Sequence record: OR062945.1 | Source: Escherichia phage 308Ecol101PP | DNA: 64,000 nucleotides | Direction: 5' to 3' (one strand) | Part shown: piece after piece, positions 2,110 through 23,764 of the stretch | Position numbering within the stretch: the first letter of the stretch is position 1 | How the letters are laid out: each line of letters starts with the position of its first letter | The notes under the pieces: generated by a model | Databases searched by the model: none | What the model saw: the letters and a program-made list of their open reading frames with translations, nothing else | Told to the model about the DNA's origin: nothing | Program-made: the position numbers and the translations under genes

Positions 2110-3393
2110 TTATTCATCAATGATAATTTTTGGTAGCTTAACACCGAGTAAAACAGACAAGTCTGAACGTCCTGCCATTTTATCCATGTCCCCACCATCG
2201 ATTATTCTCGCTTCTTTTTCGTCTTTTGCTACTGTGTAAGGATTTGCTGATAAAGCATATCTAACCAATAATCCAATAGACGGTTGCAAGCTTTCTGGAT
2301 CAACTACAACTTTAAAAGCACCGACATGTTCCGGGTCATCTAAATCTACTCCTTCAGTGTATGGAGCATAAAAGATGGACCCTACAATTTCTTTTTCGCC
2401 GATATTTTCTACAACACCTACAATAACATAATCTAACGGACTGTTGGTATCGCAGTAAAGAGGTAATCCATTTGCCAAGAATCCATAAGCATTTTGTGAA
2501 AGATACTTGTCATCTTCTGGCTTATGTTTTAACCAACCGGAAGCAGCAAGAATAGCAGCCGCACGAGCTGAGGCTACACAAAACGTTGCAGTATAAGTCG
2601 TCTCTTTTTGAATGTGCGATACCATTTCACACACCATTCGATATAATGAACGACCTGCTTCTGGAGCGGATGCATAGCTCAAGTCAATAAATCCGGTATC
2701 GGTAATTCCAGTAACTTTATAACGTTTCGATACAGTAATTAAAGACTGAAGAATATCTTTATTAATTTCATCAGCCATTTCAGTAGCAAGCAAATCTTCT
2801 AAGAAGTTAGGGGCATCAAATCCATTCGCTTCCAAATCTTGCGCTAATTCGACCGTGAGGCCAGTTTTAAGTTTACGTGATTTGACTGAAGTTTGCCATT
2901 TATTAATCTGGAATCTTGCATCAGAAATTTCGCTATCGGAGCTTTCAAATTTGCTTGTTACCGCTGCATCTGAAAATAACCGTACCTTTAAATGAACGAC
3001 TGCAATCTGAAGAGCTAGTTCTAGATCACTTTCTTGAATATCTGCAAATGGTGTATCTTCTAACACTTTATAGACGATATTATTATATTTGAAAAAATCA
3101 CCTTTATTTAGTGTGACTTTTGATTCTTCTGTTAGCTCAGTAATTTTTTCTCGGTCTACATATCCAACTTCACCCGCATAAGTAGCGCCAGTTTTAAATG
3201 TGAATTCGTTATCTGGGTTAAGATATTTGATACCATAAAAAGCAGCAACAGGTTGATTAGTTCTTTGTGTTGCTACAATGTCAGAATATATTAATTTAGT
3301 CGTAGCGCGAGTCAAAGCAACGAGATTTGGGCGACCAATTGAGTTGCTAGTAGACGTTGTAGATTCACGCAATAATTTTTGGATTTTACTCAT
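2110..3393 (-). CDS. 24: capsid vertex protein gp24
   Basis: 427 aa, same length as T4 gp24, directly downstream of gene 23 on same strand; capsid-fold paralog of gp23. Confidence 0.9.
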   Translation of the reverse strand: MSKIQKLLRESTTSTSNSIGRPNLVALTRATTKLIYSDIVATQRTNQPVAAFYGIKYLNPDNEFTFKTGATYAGEVGYVDREKITELTEESKVTLNKGDFFKYNNIVYKVLEDTPFADIQESDLELALQIAVVHLKVRLFSDAAVTSKFESSDSEISDARFQINKWQTSVKSRKLKTGLTVELAQDLEANGFDAPNFLEDLLATEMADEINKDILQSLITVSKRYKVTGITDTGFIDLSYASAPEAGRSLYRMVCEMVSHIQKETTYTATFCVASARAAAILAASGWLKHKPEDDKYLSQNAYGFLANGLPLYCDTNSPLDYVIVGVVENIGEKEIVGSIFYAPYTEGVDLDDPEHVGAFKVVVDPESLQPSIGLLVRYALSANPYTVAKDEKEARIIDGGDMDKMAGRSDLSVLLGVKLPKIIIDE

Positions 3394-3420
3394 TGCATTT
3401 TTTCCTTATGTGATATAGAT

Positions 3421-3428
3421 TATTTATA
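3421..3428 (-). promoter_or_regulatory. late promoter for gene 24
   Basis: TATAAATA on minus strand 28 nt upstream of ATG at 3393. Confidence 0.6.
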
Positions 3429-3434
3429 AAGATT

Positions 3435-3470
3435 GTTTACAACGTATTTGGTATGTGATACTATAGACTT
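3435..3470 (+). promoter_or_regulatory. early-type promoter for the 89-aa ORF
   Basis: GTTTACA at 3435-3441, TACTAT -10 about 17 nt downstream, then GAGGAG RBS. Confidence 0.45.
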
Positions 3471-3494
3471 ATCAACTACAGAGGAGTAAACAAA

Positions 3495-3764
3495 ATGACT
3501 AAAGCACGTTTCTTACGAGATACTTTAAAAGTTCTAGAAGCTGAAGCAGTTAAGTTAGTAGAAAAATATGGTGCAAAAGTTAATGGTAATGCCTTCAACA
3601 AAGTATGGATGAAAGTTGATTCTGAAGCTCGAGCTAAAGGTTATTGGGCCACTGATAAACTTGCATCATTCAAAAACAAAGACGGTTCTCTAGCATATGT
3701 CCAAGAAGGTATGCCTAATTGGCAAAATATTTTGAAAACTTACATCGAAATTGCACAGAAATAA
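3495..3764 (+). CDS. hypothetical 89-aa protein, antisense between genes 23 and 24
   Basis: ORF with GAGGAG RBS 8 nt upstream; own early-type promoter. Confidence 0.6.
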   Translation: MTKARFLRDTLKVLEAEAVKLVEKYGAKVNGNAFNKVWMKVDSEARAKGYWATDKLASFKNKDGSLAYVQEGMPNWQNILKTYIEIAQK

Positions 3765-3774
3765 AACCAAAAAT

Positions 3775-3792
3775 GGGAGACCGAAGTCTCCC
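3775..3792 (-). terminator. terminator downstream of gene 23
   Basis: GGGAGAC-cgaa-GTCTCCC hairpin followed by T-run on minus strand. Confidence 0.65.
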
Positions 3793-3816
3793 AAAATAAG
3801 ATTTAATCAATTAAGA

Positions 3817-11820: not shown

Positions 11821-14137
<2,317 letters not shown>

Positions 14138-14146
14138 ATTTACCTC

Positions 14147-14968
14147 TTATTGTTTTCTAGGACCAGGAGGGGTTGGTGGAGTCGGGATTGGAATATCATG
14201 AGTATAAGTTTGTTCAACTTCGCCATTCCAATCTTGTGCTTCAACGTCTCTCGGTTTAATTTCTGTATCAACTGATTCAAAAACACTGGCGGCTGTTTGA
14301 AGGTCTCGTTCATTAGCATGAAAATCAAGATAAGTCGTTTTAATAAGGCCTTCAGCTGCGCCTACCGGAGGATACATCCATCCATTTACTTCAAATGTTA
14401 ATGACCACTCTAAACGTCGACGAGATAAATTATCACCGTCTATTTGTTCATCCATTGCTGCTGCCATCCATACGACTTTAATATCCCTTTCAAATGGAAT
14501 ATCCTGCCCATATTGCTCAATCATAGTCGTATTAAAATGCGGCTGAAAATATGGAATAATTTGCTCAACGATTTGGAACATATCATCTTCATAACGAGTA
14601 AAGATGCTCAGTTCAAAAATCATTTTAATTGGTGATGGGTTGTATTGGTCTACAATATCCTTAGTCGATTTACTCAAAAGAGAGTTATTCAATATATTCG
14701 TTTTAAACGTTGGGTTATAAACGAAATCTACCATTTGGAGATTTATACGTGGTAGAATAGTTTCGACTTTAGCCACATCTTCTTGTGAGTTTATAGAGGT
14801 CCATTTATTAAGTTTCATCATAAAGTGCTCTTTAGATGCATACGTAATAGGAACTCTAATTAATTTATTGCCTGTAGACAATTGACGGTTAACTTGGATA
14901 TTTGAAAACAAATCGCCCATCATTGTGATATATCGCCTGAACGACGAGTTGTAAAAATAACCAAACAT
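14147..14968 (-). CDS. 15: tail sheath stabilizer / connector gp15
   Basis: MFGYFYNSSFRRY... matches T4 gp15; start taken at second Met. Confidence 0.9.
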   Translation of the reverse strand: MFGYFYNSSFRRYITMMGDLFSNIQVNRQLSTGNKLIRVPITYASKEHFMMKLNKWTSINSQEDVAKVETILPRINLQMVDFVYNPTFKTNILNNSLLSKSTKDIVDQYNPSPIKMIFELSIFTRYEDDMFQIVEQIIPYFQPHFNTTMIEQYGQDIPFERDIKVVWMAAAMDEQIDGDNLSRRRLEWSLTFEVNGWMYPPVGAAEGLIKTTYLDFHANERDLQTAASVFESVDTEIKPRDVEAQDWNGEVEQTYTHDIPIPTPPTPPGPRKQ

Positions 14969-15020
14969 CATTTCTCCTAACCGGCCTTTCGACCGGTGTT
15001 TGCTTTATCTTATCTATTTA

Positions 15021-15785
15021 TTAATTCATAAACCCATCGTCAAATGGTGAATTTTGTCTACCACGGTTGTTAACTACTACATACGGCTCAACGTATTCAC
15101 TTGCCTCTGAATTGATTTGCTCAACTTCAGAATATTCATCGATATTAATGTCATGGATACCGTCAAGATTTCTAACAGGGTTAAGTTCCAAGTCACTAAA
15201 TTCAGGTATATTGATACCTTCATTTTTCTGAAGCACCGGATTGATTTCTTCGCCAGAGTAAATAAACTTGCCTGCAGTAATTTTACGAATCGCATTTTTA
15301 CCTACTTGATAGAATGGGTCATATGGTTCAACCCAGTTAATCTCAAACAAACTGTTGTCCATTGGGAAGTATATTAAATCACCTTCCTTAGGCTCCTGAT
15401 TGTTGACCTGGTGTTTGAAAAGACCCGGGTTAATAGATAATGTAACCTCGTCTTGAACTTGCATTCCGAAGTTGCTGAAGAACGATTTCGCTCCTTCATA
15501 ACCTTCAAAAGAGTTCAGATATGCAGCAAATTTCCATGCTTTAGTAAATTTATTTTTAAGGTCCTCACCAAAGATAAGGTCCACGGCAACATATTCACGT
15601 GGAACATAAAAACATTCAATACCGCGCATCTGTATGCTTTCTGCTACTAACACATCAGCTAGGGTTTGACTATTTTCGTATTTGTTGAAGTTCACGTATT
15701 TGTTTAAAATCTCGGTTTCATTAGTTTTAGAATAGCCTTCTCGGTTTTCTAACTTTGCAAATAAATTTGAATTATACGTCGACAT
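15021..15785 (-). CDS. 14: neck protein gp14
   Basis: 254 aa; size and synteny of T4 gp14. Confidence 0.9.
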
Positions 15786-16407
15786 AATTCCATCCTGCCC
15801 ATTTAGGTTTGTTGTTTTTGCATCGGCCTATAACCGCGCTTGATGTGATATTAAATTCTTCACCACATTCTTTGCAGGTGTTAAATATTTTACCATTTAC
15901 ACTAACTTTTCGAGCTGCTGGATTTTTTGAACCAGAAAAATCAGGATGTCTATGTTTGAAATCTTTCCACATTCTTGCTGTAGATTCTTTACGTTTTCTT
16001 AACCCTTCTTCAGTCCATTTTCTTGATTTTGCGGCGTCAGACATTTTCTTTTTAGATTGGACTGAACGTTTTTGTCCTATAGATGGATTATCTTCTGGGT
16101 TAATATATGACCTTCCGCCTGCACCACCTTTAACAAGATTTGCGCAATTTTCTAAAATGGATAATTCATCTACCAGTAACTCTTCAGCTTCATCCATTAG
16201 AGCTTTAGATTCAAATGGCTTAGACCATATAATTTCTTTTATACAAGACGGACCGTATTTTCTTTTGGCCCTTCGTATAAAGGTACCAGACCCAGTATAA
16301 GGGTCTTTTGAAGGGTCTTCGTAAACTGATTTGTGTTTACCGCCATAAATCTTTATACCGGTGGATGTTTCAAATGTTGTAATATACAATCTGTAGTATG
16401 TTGCCAT
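15772..16407 (-). CDS. putative freestanding homing endonuclease (GIY-YIG-like N-terminus, basic CxxC-containing C-terminus) between genes 13 and 14
   Basis: 211-aa ORF; [20 protein letters not shown] resembles the GIY...YIG motif pair; C-terminal [10 protein letters not shown]; no counterpart between T4 genes 13 and 14. Confidence 0.45.
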
Positions 16408-16408
16408 A

Positions 16409-17335
16409 TTAACCTACCAAAATACCTGCAGGAGGGTCCAGTAAATATAACTCTTCTCGTAAAGCTTCTTTCTCTAAACGAGCTTCTTCAATTAATCGAA
16501 CACCATCAACAGTGACGCCACCCGGTAACATCATACCTTGATGTTTAGCAAGAATTTGTCCATTAAGCTCTTTAGCTAATGCAGTTGCATAATCTTTAAC
16601 CCAGCGGTTGTTGTATGCGCCTTGTTTAGTTGCAGGATCTTCACCAACTCGTCGTCCGACCAAATTATGGTCTGGATTATCATAACGTTCAGAAATAGAC
16701 CATGAATCACGAGGACCTACTTGACCGTACCCTACTGTATTTCCTACCATCTTATGGGTCTCGATATAAGAGCGAACATACGATTCAACGATAATGACAT
16801 CTTTCTGTCTAAAGTTACCCATTACTTTTAATTGCTCGTTTGCAGAGTTAAACCAAAAATCTGGAAGAGGAGCAATCATATCTTGAAGCATACCCATATA
16901 AGATACTAATTGAGAATAATACCCGAGGTCAGCGCCAAAAGCGTTCGGACCGTAGAATTTACCACAATTACTACCCATACCACCTGAAACACCTGCCATT
17001 CCTAAAAGGAAATCAGTGAACCATGGATAAGTTGCATTACCATCCATTGAAGTAATAGAGCCAACATTTGTTCTTATAATTCTTGTTACAGCAAATACGT
17101 TAGAACCGCGCATATCAAATACGCCGTGACGGTATTTTTCTTCGTCATCAACAAAAAATACATGGAAACCTTTATTCAACCCGTCAAAATGGTATTCGCC
17201 ATAAAGTTCTAACGCTCGTGAAATACAATCATAAATTTGGTCTGTAGTTAATTCAACATTTACAATAGGAGCGCCTAAACGACGTAATATTACGTCCTTT
17301 AATTCTTTAGGGTTTTGTGCATTATAACCTGACAT
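16409..17335 (-). CDS. 13: neck protein gp13
   Basis: 308 aa; [24 protein letters not shown]... matches T4 gp13. Confidence 0.93.
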
Positions 17336-17347
17336 ATAAATCCTTTA

Positions 17348-17361
17348 GGGCCCGAAGGCCC
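17348..17361. other. GC hairpin between wac and gene 13
   Basis: GGGCC-cgaa-GGCCC; T-run on plus side, so strand of action unclear. Confidence 0.4.
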
Positions 17362-17367
17362 TTTTCA

Positions 17368-18816
17368 TTAAGCTGTAGGAAGTTCAACCCATGCACCGTC
17401 TTTGCGAACATAGAATTTACCGTCTGAAGGAGCATCTTCAATATATCCAGCGTCCTTAAGAGTTTGGATTTCAGCTTCTGCAGCGGCCAAATCAGTTTCA
17501 AGAGTAGCAATTCTAGAAGTTAAACCATTAATTGTCGTATCGTGACTTTTAACTGTAGGCAATATACCACGTTCTTCAACAGTCGAACCATTTGGGTTGG
17601 TGCCGTTTATAAGAGTATTTAATGTGTTTACAGAACCCTTAATCCCTGTGGTATTAGTCCCAACATCAGTTTGAATGTTCTGAATGTCATTACTCATCTC
17701 ACCGATAGACCCTTCAAGCGCTCGAGTACGATAAAGCAAAGAGCCGTCTGGTTCCGGTTTCCCACCTGAAGCGTCAACACCAACTACGTTATTTAACCAT
17801 GACACATTAAAACGCAATCCTGACGAAGAATCAGAGCCGACAACAGTGTTCAATGCTCCGATAGCATCAGTATTGAGTTTAATACGTCCTTGGATTGTAG
17901 TAGGCAAATCATCGGCGCCAATGGCAGTTTCTACTGTAGTCAAACGAGGTTTAATACCACCCGATTGATTGAGCTCAAGATTAATGTCGTTTATTGCTGA
18001 ACTATTCGCATTAGTTGTAGTAATAATAGAAGTCGTATTAGGATACCCAATAGACTGTTTAATGCCATCTAAGTCAGCATTTTGTCGCGACAAAGTTAAA
18101 TCAATACCGGAAAGACGACTAAATACTGGAGTAGTGAAAGAAGTGCGAGGTCCCATTTCTTCGCGTAAGTGTTCGACTTCATTAGTTAAAGAGCCGACGT
18201 CAGAATCAGCAAATTTAGTTTCTAAATCAGTTAATCGAACACCGTGGTCAACAATCACGGAGCTATTAGTCATAATACGGCGTTTCATACCAGTGCTATC
18301 ATTTCCTGGAGTAGGAACCCCATTAATATCTTGACCGGTATATTGTCCTAATTCATTTTTAATCCAAAGCAGGTCGTTACGAACAGTTCTATAAACTGAA
18401 TCTGTTTCCTGATTATAAACACCAATATCATCAGTATTCGCATCAATATGTTCATTCAAATCATTCAATTCACTAGCATGGGTTTGAACTGTGACTTTAA
18501 TGACATCGATATCTTGGGTGTTCTGGCCTATCTGTGCAAGAGCATCAACATCCCCAGAAACATCTAAAATACCTTGAATAACTTTGATATCTTCATTGGC
18601 CGTATTCAAAGAAGATGCTATAGTTTTAATATTAACATCTAACGCTTCTACGTTACGTTGAACTTCAACAATAGGACGGTTCATTACACCTTCAGAACCG
18701 TATTTTGTGTCAGCACCTGTTATTTCTTCATCGTTTTTAATCCATTCAATACGACTCTGACCCGCGTCTGGCGGGCCGTCAACATATGGTAAATCTACCA
18801 GAGTTATATCAGTCAT
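17368..18816 (-). CDS. wac: fibritin (whisker antigen control)
   Basis: 482 aa; [16 protein letters not shown]... and C-terminal foldon GYIEDAPSDGKFYVRKDGAWVELPTA match T4 Wac. Confidence 0.95.
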   Translation of the reverse strand: MTDITLVDLPYVDGPPDAGQSRIEWIKNDEEITGADTKYGSEGVMNRPIVEVQRNVEALDVNIKTIASSLNTANEDIKVIQGILDVSGDVDALAQIGQNTQDIDVIKVTVQTHASELNDLNEHIDANTDDIGVYNQETDSVYRTVRNDLLWIKNELGQYTGQDINGVPTPGNDSTGMKRRIMTNSSVIVDHGVRLTDLETKFADSDVGSLTNEVEHLREEMGPRTSFTTPVFSRLSGIDLTLSRQNADLDGIKQSIGYPNTTSIITTTNANSSAINDINLELNQSGGIKPRLTTVETAIGADDLPTTIQGRIKLNTDAIGALNTVVGSDSSSGLRFNVSWLNNVVGVDASGGKPEPDGSLLYRTRALEGSIGEMSNDIQNIQTDVGTNTTGIKGSVNTLNTLINGTNPNGSTVEERGILPTVKSHDTTINGLTSRIATLETDLAAAEAEIQTLKDAGYIEDAPSDGKFYVRKDGAWVELPTA

Positions 18817-20399
18817 TATTTTACCTTAATGATATAGTTTAAAGAAATATTCCATGGGCGAGTTTCATTTCCAATTAATTCTGGACGATTCATGGTATAT
18901 TTAGAGTTACGCTGAGACGCTGGATCAATTTCATATCCCTCGTTAGTAAAATACGAACGGTTATCCCAGTCAAGTCCTTTACGAGTACCAACAAAGTTTG
19001 AACGACGAGTATTACCAAATGCACCGGAATCGTCATGTTCACCAAAACCACCGGCATGCTTATGATATGACATCTGTTGTTTTTGCACTTCACCAACATA
19101 TCCACCGGTACAACCTACCGCCAGACGAGGCTTACCGAATTGGTCATTACCATTAACATTAGGGTTAGTTAAATGGTTACCACGACCTGAGCCGCGAACA
19201 AATAATCCACGCATATCAGGCAAGCCTGGGTTAGAAGAACTACCACCATATCGTGTCCCAATTCTGGAAGCATATACCGGACATTCCGAAGCAGAAACGG
19301 TCCCACCGTGACAGAAGCGCCAGTCAGAACTCGGTAAACTATCTGCAGCCCACATTGTAATAGCGCCAACTGGAAGAATTCGGTCTAATTCATTTTGAGT
19401 CACAATACGATTGCCTTGAATATAACCACCAGTCATATTGACATTACCAGTTATATTAGCGCCACCAGAACCGACCGTCAACGTATTATTAATGCGAAGC
19501 GTGCCATTAATAGTTTGTCCGCCTCGTTGGTGGATAACATCAGCATTCCAAGCAAGGGCAGAAGAACCATCACCACCTGATTGGCTACCCGCTTGTGTAG
19601 TTAAACGAACAACTCCACGTAAAGAAGTTGTAGCCCCACGTCCGTTTAATGTTGCGCCGGTCACTACAACTGAAGAGTTGTTACTATTTACTTCAGTCTG
19701 TGTCCCTAGTTTAACGACACCTTTATTAGTTTCTGATGCTACTGAATTCATAAAGGTATAAGGTGAAATTGCATAGCCTTCACGCAGGGTGCCTTGTTGT
19801 GCTTGAGCAACTGTAGCCAAACGAACAACACCGGTAATAGATTCGGTGGCGTCGCTATTATTTGGAGCAATTTGTGAAATAAGTTTAATTGCTAATTGTT
19901 GCGTTTTTAACGGAGTCATTGCTGTTGTATCGTCAGAACCAGCTAATGCCGCAGCAGAAGTTGAAATTTTAATTACACCATTTGTTGCTTCTGTTGACAC
20001 TTTTGTCTGAAATACATTGTCTATTTTTTGATTCAATTTAAGCGGAGTAATTGATGCATCGTCAATAGCTCCGGTTACTGCTTCATCTTCAGTAGCATAA
20101 CGAGTTAAGCCATATTGAGTTTCGGTTGCATTAGGATATTGTAGACGAGCATTCAGTGTTGCCGGAGTAACAGCTTTACTATTATCTAATCCATCAATAA
20201 CTTCTTGTGGAGTAGCTATTTGAATAATTCCTGGTGTAGTAGTTGTTGCTTCCGGTACGCCGTTAACACCTGAAGGAGAAATAGCAGCTAATGCGGCTTG
20301 GACATTAGTGACTGTATCTGGAAAATTCGACCCCGTAGGGTCGAATTCAACGTAAATGGATTCGTTTGAAACGTGTTGGTATGTATTGTTATTACTCAT
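18816..20399 (-). CDS. 12: short tail fiber gp12
   Basis: 527 aa; [14 protein letters not shown]... and C-terminus [10 protein letters not shown] match T4 gp12. Confidence 0.95.
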
Positions 20400-21055
20400 G
20401 AGGCTCTCACAAAGTGGTAGAAAACGGTAGGAGTGCTATGGTTATCAAGAGTAACCGTTTGGGCACCCAATAAATTCCATGTTCCGTATCCGGATTTTGC
20501 TTCAGACAAAATTTCTTGCGAAATTGTTACACCAAACGAAGCATATGTTGGCAACACATGACGTTGGTTATCTAAATATGTCACCTGAAGTTTATTACCT
20601 TCGGTCGGATGGTCTTTATAAGAAGAAATAGCGATTTGATTAGCAATGGCTTCTTGTAAAGCTATACGAACTTGTGCCGTTAATTCGTTATCAGTCATAC
20701 CGATTGTTGCTTTAACAGCAAGTCCAAATACGTTAATAACGACCGGCGTTCCAGGGGTCAAAGTATCGTCGAGAACATCACCAGAAAAAGTCCAATAATC
20801 AACTTGTGCTGTACCTTCAGGTGATATGCCTGAAGTGTTTGTGACAACAGTACCAATATCAGCTCGTGCCATATTATGGACATCATTTATTGCAGATTCT
20901 ACGTTAGCATCATAAAAACCGCGAGCTAACTGAGAAATAGTCACAGAACCTACAGCTTGGTTGTTTAAAACATCGATTTGAGCCGGATTTTTTCTGTAAT
21001 TCAAAAAATCAGCATGACGGGAAATAACTCCCGCCTTTGTATTAAGTACAGTCAT
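20396..21055 (-). CDS. 11: baseplate wedge / short tail fiber attachment protein gp11
   Basis: 219 aa from Met aligned to T4 gp11 N-terminus; TAATG overlap with gene 10 stop. Confidence 0.9.
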
Positions 21056-22860
21056 TATGCAATCCTTACCCAACGGTATACAGTTATAGATGGCTGAATA
21101 TTAGTTATAGAACGCGCTGGAACATGAGATCCATTAGTCTTTGCATGGTCTTCACGATATTTAGTGTAAATAGGACCTTCTTCATCTGGGTCATATTGGC
21201 AACCGCCTATAATTACTGTACCATTATCATCAGAAATAAGAACCTTTTCATCGGTTTGTGTAGCTGGTAAATCAGCATTTTCTAATGTGATGGTTGTTAC
21301 ACCGACGGTCCCACCTGCGGTATGAGTAGGGTTACCATTGACGTCAAGGTCATTATTATTTAATGCAAAATTAGGATCCGACGCGTCATCATTCCAACCT
21401 GCTAATACTTTGCCTTGTCCCCAAATTTTCCACGAACCAAAACCTAAATAAGTTGCCGGATTATTAGGGTTAACCGCATTTTCGTAAATAGTCCCGACAG
21501 GATAAATTGTATCAAATATTGCTGAGATAGTCGAGAATTCACGTTCATATTTAGGAACAGGTTCTACATTAGGCCATCCAATTTTATCGAAATCGGTTAA
21601 TGCAACGTCACCAGTAATTTCAATGTTAGACCCTTGAGAAACATATTTCTCATCAGCGACATCAAGGATTTCTTCCATTTCAAGAAGAGTTCCTAAATCG
21701 TTATTAAACCATGTGATGGTAATAATGTCTTGGTCTTCAAATTGACGGTCAAACAGAATTGCGCTAGGGATATTATCAGTATATTCAATCGCATAATCTG
21801 TATACGATTGGGTCCATGTCCCGCCGAGGTTTGTGCATGACTCTTCAGAATCAGCATCCACACCTTCACAACGGAAAATAGGAGTACCAACAGTACCAGC
21901 TAATTCTTGGAGAATACCATTGAAGCGAACTTCTAATGAATTCGGGTTAGGTGGTTCTGTAGGATTAATACCAAATGCTGTAAATGGAATAGACCGGAAC
22001 GTACTCAAATCAGTGACGTAAATACTTCCGTCAATAGACTTTTTAGCAGTCAATTTACTATCTAAAATGCGAACTTGACGACGAGTATATGAACTACGCC
22101 ACTGAGAAACACCATCTAGAAATGTCTCAATTTGTACGGTGTCGCCAACATTACATGGTTGGCGTAATCTAATATTAAATCCATCGAGTGCAACCAGTTC
22201 ACCAGGATTAGCGCCTGGAGAACCAAAATCACTATTATCACTGAATACATCACCATAATACAATTCGTTGCCACGATGTTTTACGCGAATGTTGTTAACG
22301 TTATAAGAGGTCCCGTTAAAAACATCCATGAAATCGGTCTGACCTTGGGTTTCAACCAGATATTCTCTACGAGCAACATTACTAATGTCAGAGCTAACTA
22401 TTTTATCAATTTGTTTGTTCTTGATGTATTCCCAACGTCCAGGAGCACAATAAACTAATTCTAAATCAGAGAACTGAACGTTAATTTCTACCGGAGATGA
22501 AGAACCTTTAATCGTGTCTCCGTTTGCCGGAATTAAAGTAACAGGGTTAATGTTCCAAGTTGCAAATACGTCACGAGCACGAATAACTTTATTATAGTCT
22601 GCAATTGTCCCTTTAGGAAGATTTACCGAAACTCGTCCAGAAGTAGTATTAATTGCATAAGATTTACCCCAAGCGGCATTAAGATTAAGACCATCAGCCG
22701 CATCATAAGTCTTCCATGCGCCAGCTGAATAAGGAACTTCACCATCACCTAATTCATAATAGATTTCGTCAAAGTTCTCATTTATTTTTTCACCACCTCG
22801 ACGAAGGTAATCGCCTTGTCCGTCATCAACGACGTTACCAATTTTAATATTTTGTTTCAT
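21055..22860 (-). CDS. 10: baseplate wedge protein gp10
   Basis: 601 aa, size and synteny. Confidence 0.9.
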
Positions 22861-23732
22861 TATTGAGCGACCCCAATTTTCTGAGTTGAGATAATTTTAA
22901 CTGCTGAACGTAATCCAATAATATCAGATGTAATCGTCATAGTAACAAAGTTGTTAATAATACTAAAGCTAATATTAGCAATCTCGTCGGTTTCATCTAC
23001 ATTACCAACTCGCATTACTGCAAATTCGGTAGAAAGAACTTCTGAGTTAATTGTATCTATTAGAATATTTATTTCGCATGTTTTTATTTTTCTACCGTCG
23101 GCGGATTGGCATGTAACAAGCAATTTAGCCATGTTATAATCTGTGCGATAAAACAGAGGAATAGAAACTGTGTTTCCTGTAAGACTCCAAGTCCCATCGA
23201 CAGGAGATTCTTTCTGCCCAAACATGCTATCAGTAGAATAATTCCATACTGAAGTCGGCCCATTAAGTTCAATACAACGAAGAACAACATGGGTATAAGG
23301 GGTGGAAATAACAAGATTATTAAGAACGCCTTTAATTGAACCATCGGTTACTTGGATACTTAAAGGATTGTTAACAGAAATAGACCCATTAGAGTTTATG
23401 AATTCTACAGAGTCACCTAATTCAGGACGGTCAATAATAACAATCACACCGCCATCAGAAGCATCAATATCATGCATGGTGCCGGGTTTAATAGGAGTTT
23501 GATAATCGACCGCCTTTCCTTTTTGATAATAACCTGTGGCATGAATAGTTTGACCTGTAGGTCCGGTTCCATCTGCTACGGCCATTTTACGTTGATCGCC
23601 AAATGCATTGTAAATAGCGTTGATATCGTCATTTATTTTATTACCACCGTCGAATAAGATATCACCTGTTGAGGCATTACCAATTTCGCCGGTATCGATT
23701 AATTGTTTAGGAGTTTGCTTAAAAAATGCCAT
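22860..23732 (-). CDS. 9: baseplate wedge protein gp9 (long tail fiber socket)
   Basis: 290 aa; ...QLIDTGEIGNASTGDILFDGGNKIN... matches T4 gp9. Confidence 0.95.
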   Translation of the reverse strand: MAFFKQTPKQLIDTGEIGNASTGDILFDGGNKINDDINAIYNAFGDQRKMAVADGTGPTGQTIHATGYYQKGKAVDYQTPIKPGTMHDIDASDGGVIVIIDRPELGDSVEFINSNGSISVNNPLSIQVTDGSIKGVLNNLVISTPYTHVVLRCIELNGPTSVWNYSTDSMFGQKESPVDGTWSLTGNTVSIPLFYRTDYNMAKLLVTCQSADGRKIKTCEINILIDTINSEVLSTEFAVMRVGNVDETDEIANISFSIINNFVTMTITSDIIGLRSAVKIISTQKIGVAQ

Positions 23733-23764
23733 AATTCTGCCTTTTGTTGTCCGATATTATATTC

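Follow-up and report, generated by a model that had tools for sequence, protein, structure and literature searches.

In phage T4, the closest described counterpart of the gene reported here is SegC, a free-standing GIY-YIG endonuclease with demonstrated activity (2010 review, PMC2988022). SegC, SegF and SegG have been described as promoter-less cassettes in late messages, and SegF and SegG spread by "intronless homing", that is, by double-strand-break repair with co-conversion of the adjacent sequence (PMC2988022). [quoted passage not shown] The T4 mobile elements compiled in the same review include no endonuclease at the junction of the neck genes 13 and 14 (13/14 junction), and our literature search returned neither a paper on an endonuclease at this junction nor reports of activity or mobility for its clade.

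Here we describe a gene located at this junction in a 64,000-nucleotide stretch of DNA from the T4-like (Mosigvirus) Escherichia phage 308Ecol101PP (OR062945.1), the whole of which is referred to as the window. The gene probably encodes a Seg-type free-standing homing endonuclease that would spread by intronless homing together with a recoded 5' end of gene 14. It is none of SegA to SegH, and its locus is not listed for T4. We note that elements of this type are ordinary in T-even phages, and public records already name it a putative homing endonuclease. The locus consists of three genes:

16409..17335, minus strand: gene 13, neck protein (head-tail adaptor), on the upstream side; from the ORF and comparison with relatives
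15772..16407, minus strand: probable Seg-type GIY-YIG free-standing homing endonuclease gene; from the ORF, PHROG_314, SegC colinearity and 12 near-identical records
15021..15785, minus strand: gene 14, neck protein (head closure), on the downstream side; Pfam T4_neck-protein match at 2e-127

The endonuclease ORF starts with ATG and encodes 211 amino acids plus stop. After the TAA of gene 13 (16411..16409) comes one T (16408), then the ATG of the endonuclease (16407..16405), and the end of the ORF overlaps gene 14 by 14 nt (15772..15785); in T4, genes 13 and 14 are adjacent with the same 1-nt spacer. The encoded protein is basic (pI 9.58; 40 K+R vs 25 D+E), with a pI of 10.1 for its C-terminal half. 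Coordinates and pI thereby bear out the original prediction, made from the sequence without database searches, of a 211-aa basic ORF that fills the gap between two genes adjacent in T4, beginning 1 nt past the gene 13 stop and overlapping the gene 14 start by 14 nt; the minus-strand orientation is an addition to that prediction. The ORF is not a chance reading frame, because it is 99–100% identical in 12 phage records, has homologues in five genera and shows dN/dS values of 0.05–0.26, corresponding to purifying selection on the endonuclease proteins. The Pfam family Phage_T4_gp13 was matched by the counterpart of gene 13 in locus L021.

Signals for separate transcription were sought around the gene. 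On the minus strand, the T4-type late promoter sequence TATAAATA is absent from 11829 to 23764, and scans for sigma-70-like promoters and terminator-like elements did not exceed what shuffled sequence gives. The gene thus resembles a cassette that lacks its own promoter and is read within a late message. The segC gene is likewise a promoter-less cassette overlapping both of its neighbours in a late structural operon, although it is located between genes 5.1 and 5.4 rather than between 13 and 14, and its target is presumably different.

The ORF stands alone between the complete genes 13 and 14, outside any intron or intein, whereas I-TevI, the td group I intron endonuclease of T4, is intron-encoded. 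An intron-encoded origin would accord with the label "group I intron endonuclease" given to a Krischvirus homologue (MK327947) and with a weak C-terminal match to TIGR01453 grpIintron_endo (4.9e-6, below the cut-off), but it has practically negligible probability: complete ORFs flank the gene on both sides, one of them overlapping it, and insert-free alleles show a simple 13/14 junction with no exon interruption. A search of 14000–18900 at E<=1 matched no Rfam RNA family, group I introns included, and a group I intron was rejected.

The protein consists of three parts:

16114..16407, minus strand: N-terminal GIY-YIG catalytic domain, aa 1–98, with Y8, Y21-x-G23, E75 and N90
15943..16113, minus strand: basic linker, aa 99–155, NUMOD3-like at aa 105–123, with two long helices; from Pfam NUMOD3 and the structure model
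15775..15942, minus strand: I-TevI-type helix-turn-helix (HTH) DNA-binding domain, aa 156–211; from Pfam I-TevI_DNA-bd, the 1I3J profile match and Foldseek

Searches with the single sequence identified the C-terminal parts and a full-length family, namely PHROG_314 "homing endonuclease" (5.5e-37), Pfam I-TevI_DNA-bd (9.9e-5, aa 159–204) and Pfam NUMOD3 (E 0.0026, aa 105–123), the two Pfam matches being under the gathering score. A GIY-YIG or HNH nuclease domain was found in neither Pfam nor NCBIfam by this route. Pfam GIY-YIG (PF01541) gave no match at E<=1 for the window protein, and neither PF01541 nor PF19835 matched at E<=0.1 for five clade members; phmmer against the PDB returned a marginal match to the I-TevI DNA-binding domain (E 0.19). 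Since single-sequence searches fell short, the nuclease assignment needed a family profile and a fold search. A word-indexed homology search yielded 12 close homologues with 53–64% identity, and a profile search widened the set to relatives bearing PF01541, PF19835 and NUMOD3. The gathering score of PF19835 (SegE_GIY-YIG) is passed by a distant full-length relative (P0047) and by T4 SegC (26.4 bits, cut-off 25), in contrast to the window protein, which has no Pfam nuclease match. An exhaustive profile search reached 7073 representatives at E<=1e-3, and the endonuclease therefore sits in a very large family.

In an alignment of 39 sequences, Y21, G23, K50, E75, N90, G94 and G95 are invariant. 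The family profile matches the I-TevI catalytic domain (1LN0, 2.9e-9, residues 8–88) as well as the I-TevI DNA-binding domain (1I3J, 5.8e-7), and aligns Y8, Y21, G23, E75 and N90 with I-TevI Y6, Y17, G19, E75 and N90, respectively. The GIY motif corresponds to R6-L7-Y8, invariant in the 12-member clade and part of a strand (4–14) in the model; the YIG motif corresponds to Y21-x-G23 in the second strand; E75 is the counterpart of the metal-binding Glu and N90 that of the conserved Asn. The N-terminal string YRLY...IYGG, which had been read as a likeness to the GIY...YIG pair, is thus correctly interpreted. An AlphaFold2 model built on the 39-sequence alignment (mean pLDDT 91) shows an alpha/beta fold with a three-stranded antiparallel sheet, linker helices at 116–127 and 133–149 and HTH-domain helices at 178–185 and 189–197. 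The best Foldseek match of the model is 1i3j, the I-TevI DNA-binding domain, and the C-terminal region is modular, combining NUMOD3 with the I-TevI-type HTH. In the HMM comparison with GIY-YIG and HNH families that had been proposed as a check, the single sequence has no nuclease match in Pfam, and the family profile matches the I-TevI catalytic domain. The designation as a seg/mob-type enzyme holds in its first half, as a Seg-type GIY-YIG protein; a Mob-type HNH endonuclease was rejected, as no HNH family appeared in the Pfam, NCBIfam or PHROG results and the fold is GIY-YIG.

The closest T4 protein is SegC, with 33% identity over the colinear residues 4 to 197 (3e-16). Both proteins consist of the same three parts—GIY-YIG, NUMOD3 and I-TevI-type HTH—and share the motif variants G-x-H-K-[ST], D-x-Y-x-G-S-G and A-x-K-K-Y-G; the N-terminal motif reads R-L-Y in the window protein and Y-L-Y in SegC. 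The zinc finger in the I-TevI linker is without counterpart in the window protein, which has no Cys cluster and a single, non-conserved CxxC. The CxxC-containing basic tail noted earlier does exist (C178-K-E-C181), but it is not a conserved motif, because C178 occurs in none of the 11 homologues, all of which have G or L at this position. A zinc-finger reading was rejected: C178 is unique to the window lineage and the segment forms the first HTH helix. No invariant Arg is evident at the position of I-TevI R27, I-TevI residues 27–34 being an insertion relative to the family profile, and segment 28–41 of the model is mostly loop in place of the I-TevI helix that carries R27 and H31. In this region the window protein reads GGKHKS, the closest clade GGKRHS and T4 SegC GVHKT; because SegC deviates as well, the difference is more probably a trait of the Seg subfamily than decay.

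The window contains no paralogue detectable by tblastn with either the window protein or T4 SegC. Another protein (P0018) has the nuclease domain in common (44% identity over ~58% of the query) and carries an unrelated C-terminal part. Its gene is found at another locus, near or downstream of nrdD/nrdG-like genes (L022, a Logan SRR31864812 contig, 3001–3810). Such shuffling of nuclease domain and DNA-binding tail agrees with the modular way in which these enzymes are expected to evolve.

The segment spanning gene 13, the ORF and gene 14 is 98.3–99.4% identical to 12 Escherichia phage records (including F2, mogra, moskry, SQ17, JM10 and phiEC1), nearly all classed as Mosigvirus. In these, the ORF is labelled variously as "putative endonuclease", "homing endonuclease", "GIY-YIG endonuclease" or "hypothetical protein". 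The flanks are found at >=95% identity in 148 records, 12 of which contain the ORF; in the remaining 136 the match is split in two and leaves it out. This disposes of the possibility that all relatives carry the ORF, which had been named as an observation that would count against a mobile gene. Sporadic presence at an otherwise conserved junction, in Mosigvirus and in minorities of four other genera, supports the proposed free-standing homing endonuclease along with the family profile and the SegC homology, and the proposed lifestyle resembles that of SegF and SegG, free-standing GIY-YIG genes between conserved genes and sporadic among relatives. Among the carriers, F2 (MN864145) is filed under Tequatrovirus while its sequence groups with Mosigvirus. 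P0001, at 99% identity, carries the name of a hypothetical protein from Shigella flexneri; phage DNA within an assembly of the bacterium is the presumed source.

Comparison with insert-free relatives, in two of which gene 13 TAA-T-ATG gene 14 was read directly as in T4, shows how the gene is joined to its neighbours. In coding sense, the insert-free junction reads ...GTAGGTTAA-T-ATGGCAACTTATGATAAA... (gp14 = MATYDKNLF...), and the insert-carrying junction reads ...GTAGGTTAA-T-ATGGCAACATACTACAGA... (endonuclease = MATYYRLY...). The relevant elements are:

16413..16418, minus strand: Shine-Dalgarno-like GGTAGG within the gene 13 3' end; read from the sequence
16396..16407, minus strand: endonuclease start (ATGGCAACATAC, M-A-T-Y); from junction alignments
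15789..15796, minus strand: Shine-Dalgarno-like AGGATGGA in the endonuclease C-terminal codons; read from the sequence
15738..15785, minus strand: recoded gene 14 nt 1–48; from comparison with insert-free alleles

The start of the endonuclease takes the position of the native gene 14 start, where insert-free relatives read ATGGCAACTTAT (M-A-T-Y); the first four codons of the endonuclease and of native gene 14 are hence common in sense. GGTAGG is identical in two insert-free alleles (L001 and L002) and, judged by its sequence and position, is the putative native ribosome-binding site of gene 14 now serving the endonuclease. The new gene 14 ATG lies within the last endonuclease codons, ...TGG AAT TAT GTC GAC GTA TAA (W-N-Y-V-D-V*), and is preceded by AGGATGGA, which would serve the relocated start. 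The context GGA..TGGA(A/G)TT-ATG is kept in homologues of all five genera. RNA at the two translation starts folds no better than shuffles (z +0.4 to +1.1). A 20-nt near-palindrome containing a SalI site (15770–15789; coding sense AATTATGTCGACGTATAATT) extends across the stop codon of the endonuclease and the start codon of gene 14. It is able to fold into a hairpin of 8 bp in which the AUG is enclosed, with a folding energy no better than that of shuffles, and its stem is not obviously conserved in MX01.

Downstream of the restart, gene 14 is recoded. Its nt 1–48 differ from insert-free alleles by 16 substitutions, resulting in 4 amino-acid changes and 8 silently changed codons. In a comparison of six insert-carrying and six insert-free Mosigvirus loci, differences amount to 16/51 in gene 14 nt 1–51 vs 19/1641 over the remainder of the two neck genes (Fisher p 1e-16), with 0–2 differences within each class and 15–17 between classes in the former segment. 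Carriers and insert-free phages are not told apart by their distances in gene 13 or over nt 52–765 of gene 14: gene 13 of the window differs from that of insert-carrying SQ17 at 26 sites and from that of insert-free 348Ecol098PP at 6. A 4.8-kb alignment (window 13500–18900, insert removed) contains 630 variable columns, 14 of which separate the classes perfectly, all at 15738–15782. At >=98.6% identity, a database search with the recoded allele returned those 12 records and no others, the remainder being at <=79%. Recoding is thus strictly linked to the insert, and the mobile unit therefore comprises the endonuclease gene plus the recoded gene 14 5' end, roughly 15738..16399. Among carriers the endonuclease gene differs at 3–5 of 622 nt (0.5–0.8%), and the flanks of this near-identical cassette interleave with the corresponding sequences of insert-free phages. 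If the insert were inherited vertically, ordinary recombination around it could also produce such interleaving.

Homologues with 53–64% identity are found between genes 13 and 14 in Dhakavirus (MX01), Gaprivervirus (RZ, SP18, VR26), Krischvirus (G5211), Slopekvirus (phT4A, KpF2) and a 175-kb metagenomic contig. In Gaprivervirus, Slopekvirus, Krischvirus and Dhakavirus, the gene is carried by a minority of records. Position of the endonuclease start and gene 14 differences in the first two 51-nt bins (elsewhere mostly 0–3 in each genus) are as follows:

Gaprivervirus: ATG at the native gene 14 ATG, ATGGCTACTTA common to both alleles; 12 + 9 differences
Slopekvirus: ATG at the native gene 14 ATG, ATGCAA and the GGGGGAAAA spacer common to both; 16 + 17 differences
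Dhakavirus: ATG at the native gene 14 ATG, same TAA-TT-ATG; 12 + 9 differences
Krischvirus: ATG not at the gene 14 ATG, within a 36-nt spacer; 28 + 19 differences

The length of the recoded tract varies by genus, from ~50 to ~100 nt, and the restart ATG of gene 14 lies inside conserved W-(N/S/R)-Y codons in all genera compared. In Slopekvirus, the endonuclease alleles of phT4A (L008 1195–1809) and KpF2 (L009 1198–1812) are deeply diverged (dS about 1.8, dN/dS 0.11), and their flanking genes are far more alike. These alleles represent either two co-circulating lineages or more than one invasion of the genus. The 36-nt spacer of Krischvirus, as seen in RB49 (L025 1034–1069), holds a GGGGGAGTATTCCCCC hairpin, which the endonuclease insertion of G5211 splits exactly in the loop.

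A different enzyme occupies the junction in Krischvirus phage KFS-EC (L024, NC_055757.1, 1087–1902). This longer, 271-aa protein likewise belongs to the GIY-YIG superfamily (YVYKITN...KIYVGV...YMGSGKIIKQAIKHHG) and is annotated as a homing endonuclease, but it represents a different lineage with several NUMOD3-like repeats. In contrast to the window gene, it is placed inside the intergenic spacer, flanked by spacers of its own and clear of gene 14, and the first 51 nt of the RB49-type gene 14 are left almost unchanged (3 differences). A second copy of the 13/14 spacer is kept downstream of the KFS-EC endonuclease. The presence of this distinct enzyme suggests that the junction is a hot spot for at least two endonuclease lineages.

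The most probable reading, Seg-type intronless homing, would proceed as follows. The endonuclease would be read within the late wac-13-14-15 message and translated from the former ribosome-binding site and start codon of gene 14, while gene 14 would be re-initiated at the ATG and Shine-Dalgarno-like sequence in the last endonuclease codons. Upon co-infection, the enzyme is predicted to cut both strands of the insert-free genome in the 13/14 region, most likely in the first 50–100 nt of gene 14. T4-type recombination would then repair the break from the insert-carrying template, copying the endonuclease gene as well as the adjacent recoded segment (intronless homing with co-conversion). With gp14 nearly unchanged and the DNA altered, the recoded 48 nt would render the carrier allele uncleavable. 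The recoded tract is most simply understood as a variant target that protects the carrier and is co-converted with the gene. The analysis establishes the gene with its fold and family, its sporadic distribution, the anatomy of the junction, the tight linkage of the recoded tract and purifying selection. That the enzyme cleaves DNA, where it does so, that the recoded allele is immune and that the gene is mobile today are predictions from comparative sequence data; the sequence footprint at the locus is of the kind expected from SegF/SegG-like co-conversion.

The cleavage sites of SegF and SegG are described as distant, whereas the polymorphic tract observed here directly adjoins the gene. [quoted passage not shown] The recoded 48 nt would then be a remnant of a diverged donor with no role in immunity, brought in with the cassette because the tract overlaps and adjoins the ORF. 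The variable tract length between genera (~50 to ~100 nt) is compatible with such a remnant, as is the constraint on the first 14 nt of the tract by the overlapping endonuclease C-terminus (YVDV*), which is common to MX01 (ATGTCGAC...). Against it, the same gene 14 segment is recoded in five genera from different donor sequences. Furthermore, 13500–18900 contains no other class-separating site, so that a distant protected site would have to be located more than ~2 kb away or be non-polymorphic.

Homing also has to be weighed against a domesticated or immobilised relic, kept for the start signals of gene 14, whose location inside the ORF would make a clean deletion difficult, or another role such as DNA-binding regulation or the exclusion of competitor phages. 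I-TevI-type enzymes double as DNA-binding repressors, as in I-TevI autoregulation, and a repressor role would have this precedent; in addition, the gene 14 ATG and Shine-Dalgarno-like sequence sit in the last codons of the ORF in all genera, and a canonical catalytic Arg is not identifiable. We nevertheless consider this explanation improbable. The last ~25 nt of the ORF suffice for gene 14 initiation, yet purifying selection extends over the whole 211-aa protein, and Y21, G23, E75 and N90 are invariant; selection on the whole protein and conserved catalytic residues together make a non-mobile relic less likely. The active SegC has the same motif deviations, and the phages that carry the gene, at 0.5–0.8% divergence, resemble each other in their flanks no more than they resemble insert-free phages.

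Within the preferred homing interpretation, a more specific and tentative possibility is that the element forms a locus-adapted unit, spliced in where translation of an essential neck gene begins and bringing along a copy of its presumed target that is recoded by synonymous changes. It would have captured the start codon and ribosome-binding site of gene 14 in at least four genera and replaced them from its W-N-Y codons in five. Such a unit would be cleavage-immune and hard to delete cleanly, with translation of gene 14 tied to that of the endonuclease. If the recoded 48–100 nt are the recognition site, the five genera provide a series of target and immune-allele pairs for the study of GIY-YIG target specificity. 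Start-codon capture, embedded restart site and tightly linked recoded target make up a ready experimental system. The repeated capture, restart and recoding across five genera is the only mildly unusual aspect of an element that is otherwise unsurprising to specialists.

The clade is an uncharacterised, locus-specific addition to the T-even Seg family, at the 13/14 junction of five Straboviridae genera. Seg-type elements drive localised gene conversion and marker exclusion when phages co-infect, so the window element probably shapes mosaicism of the neck and late region in therapeutic-type coliphages and Klebsiella phages. The findings also suggest an annotation rule, as the gene goes under "group I intron endonuclease", "segC" or "hypothetical" in several records, and gene 14 is annotated too short in one. 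In SP18 (GQ981382, L006 1829–2617), where the endonuclease is named "segC", gene 14 is annotated from an internal start at locus position 1931; the ATG at 1829, which overlaps the endonuclease, yields full-length gp14.

Two observations concern the region upstream of gene 13. The spacer between wac and gene 13 contains a GC-rich perfect hairpin (17347–17362, AGGGCCCGAAGGCCCT), listed as a putative terminator in the annotation of KAW3E185; because it is a palindrome, it could form on the transcript of either strand. The wac (fibritin) gene of SQ17 (L011 3869–5311) differs from that of the window (17368–18816) at 406 of 1443 sites, compared with 1–3% in the neighbouring genes, and this divergence marks a sharp mosaic boundary beside the neck genes.
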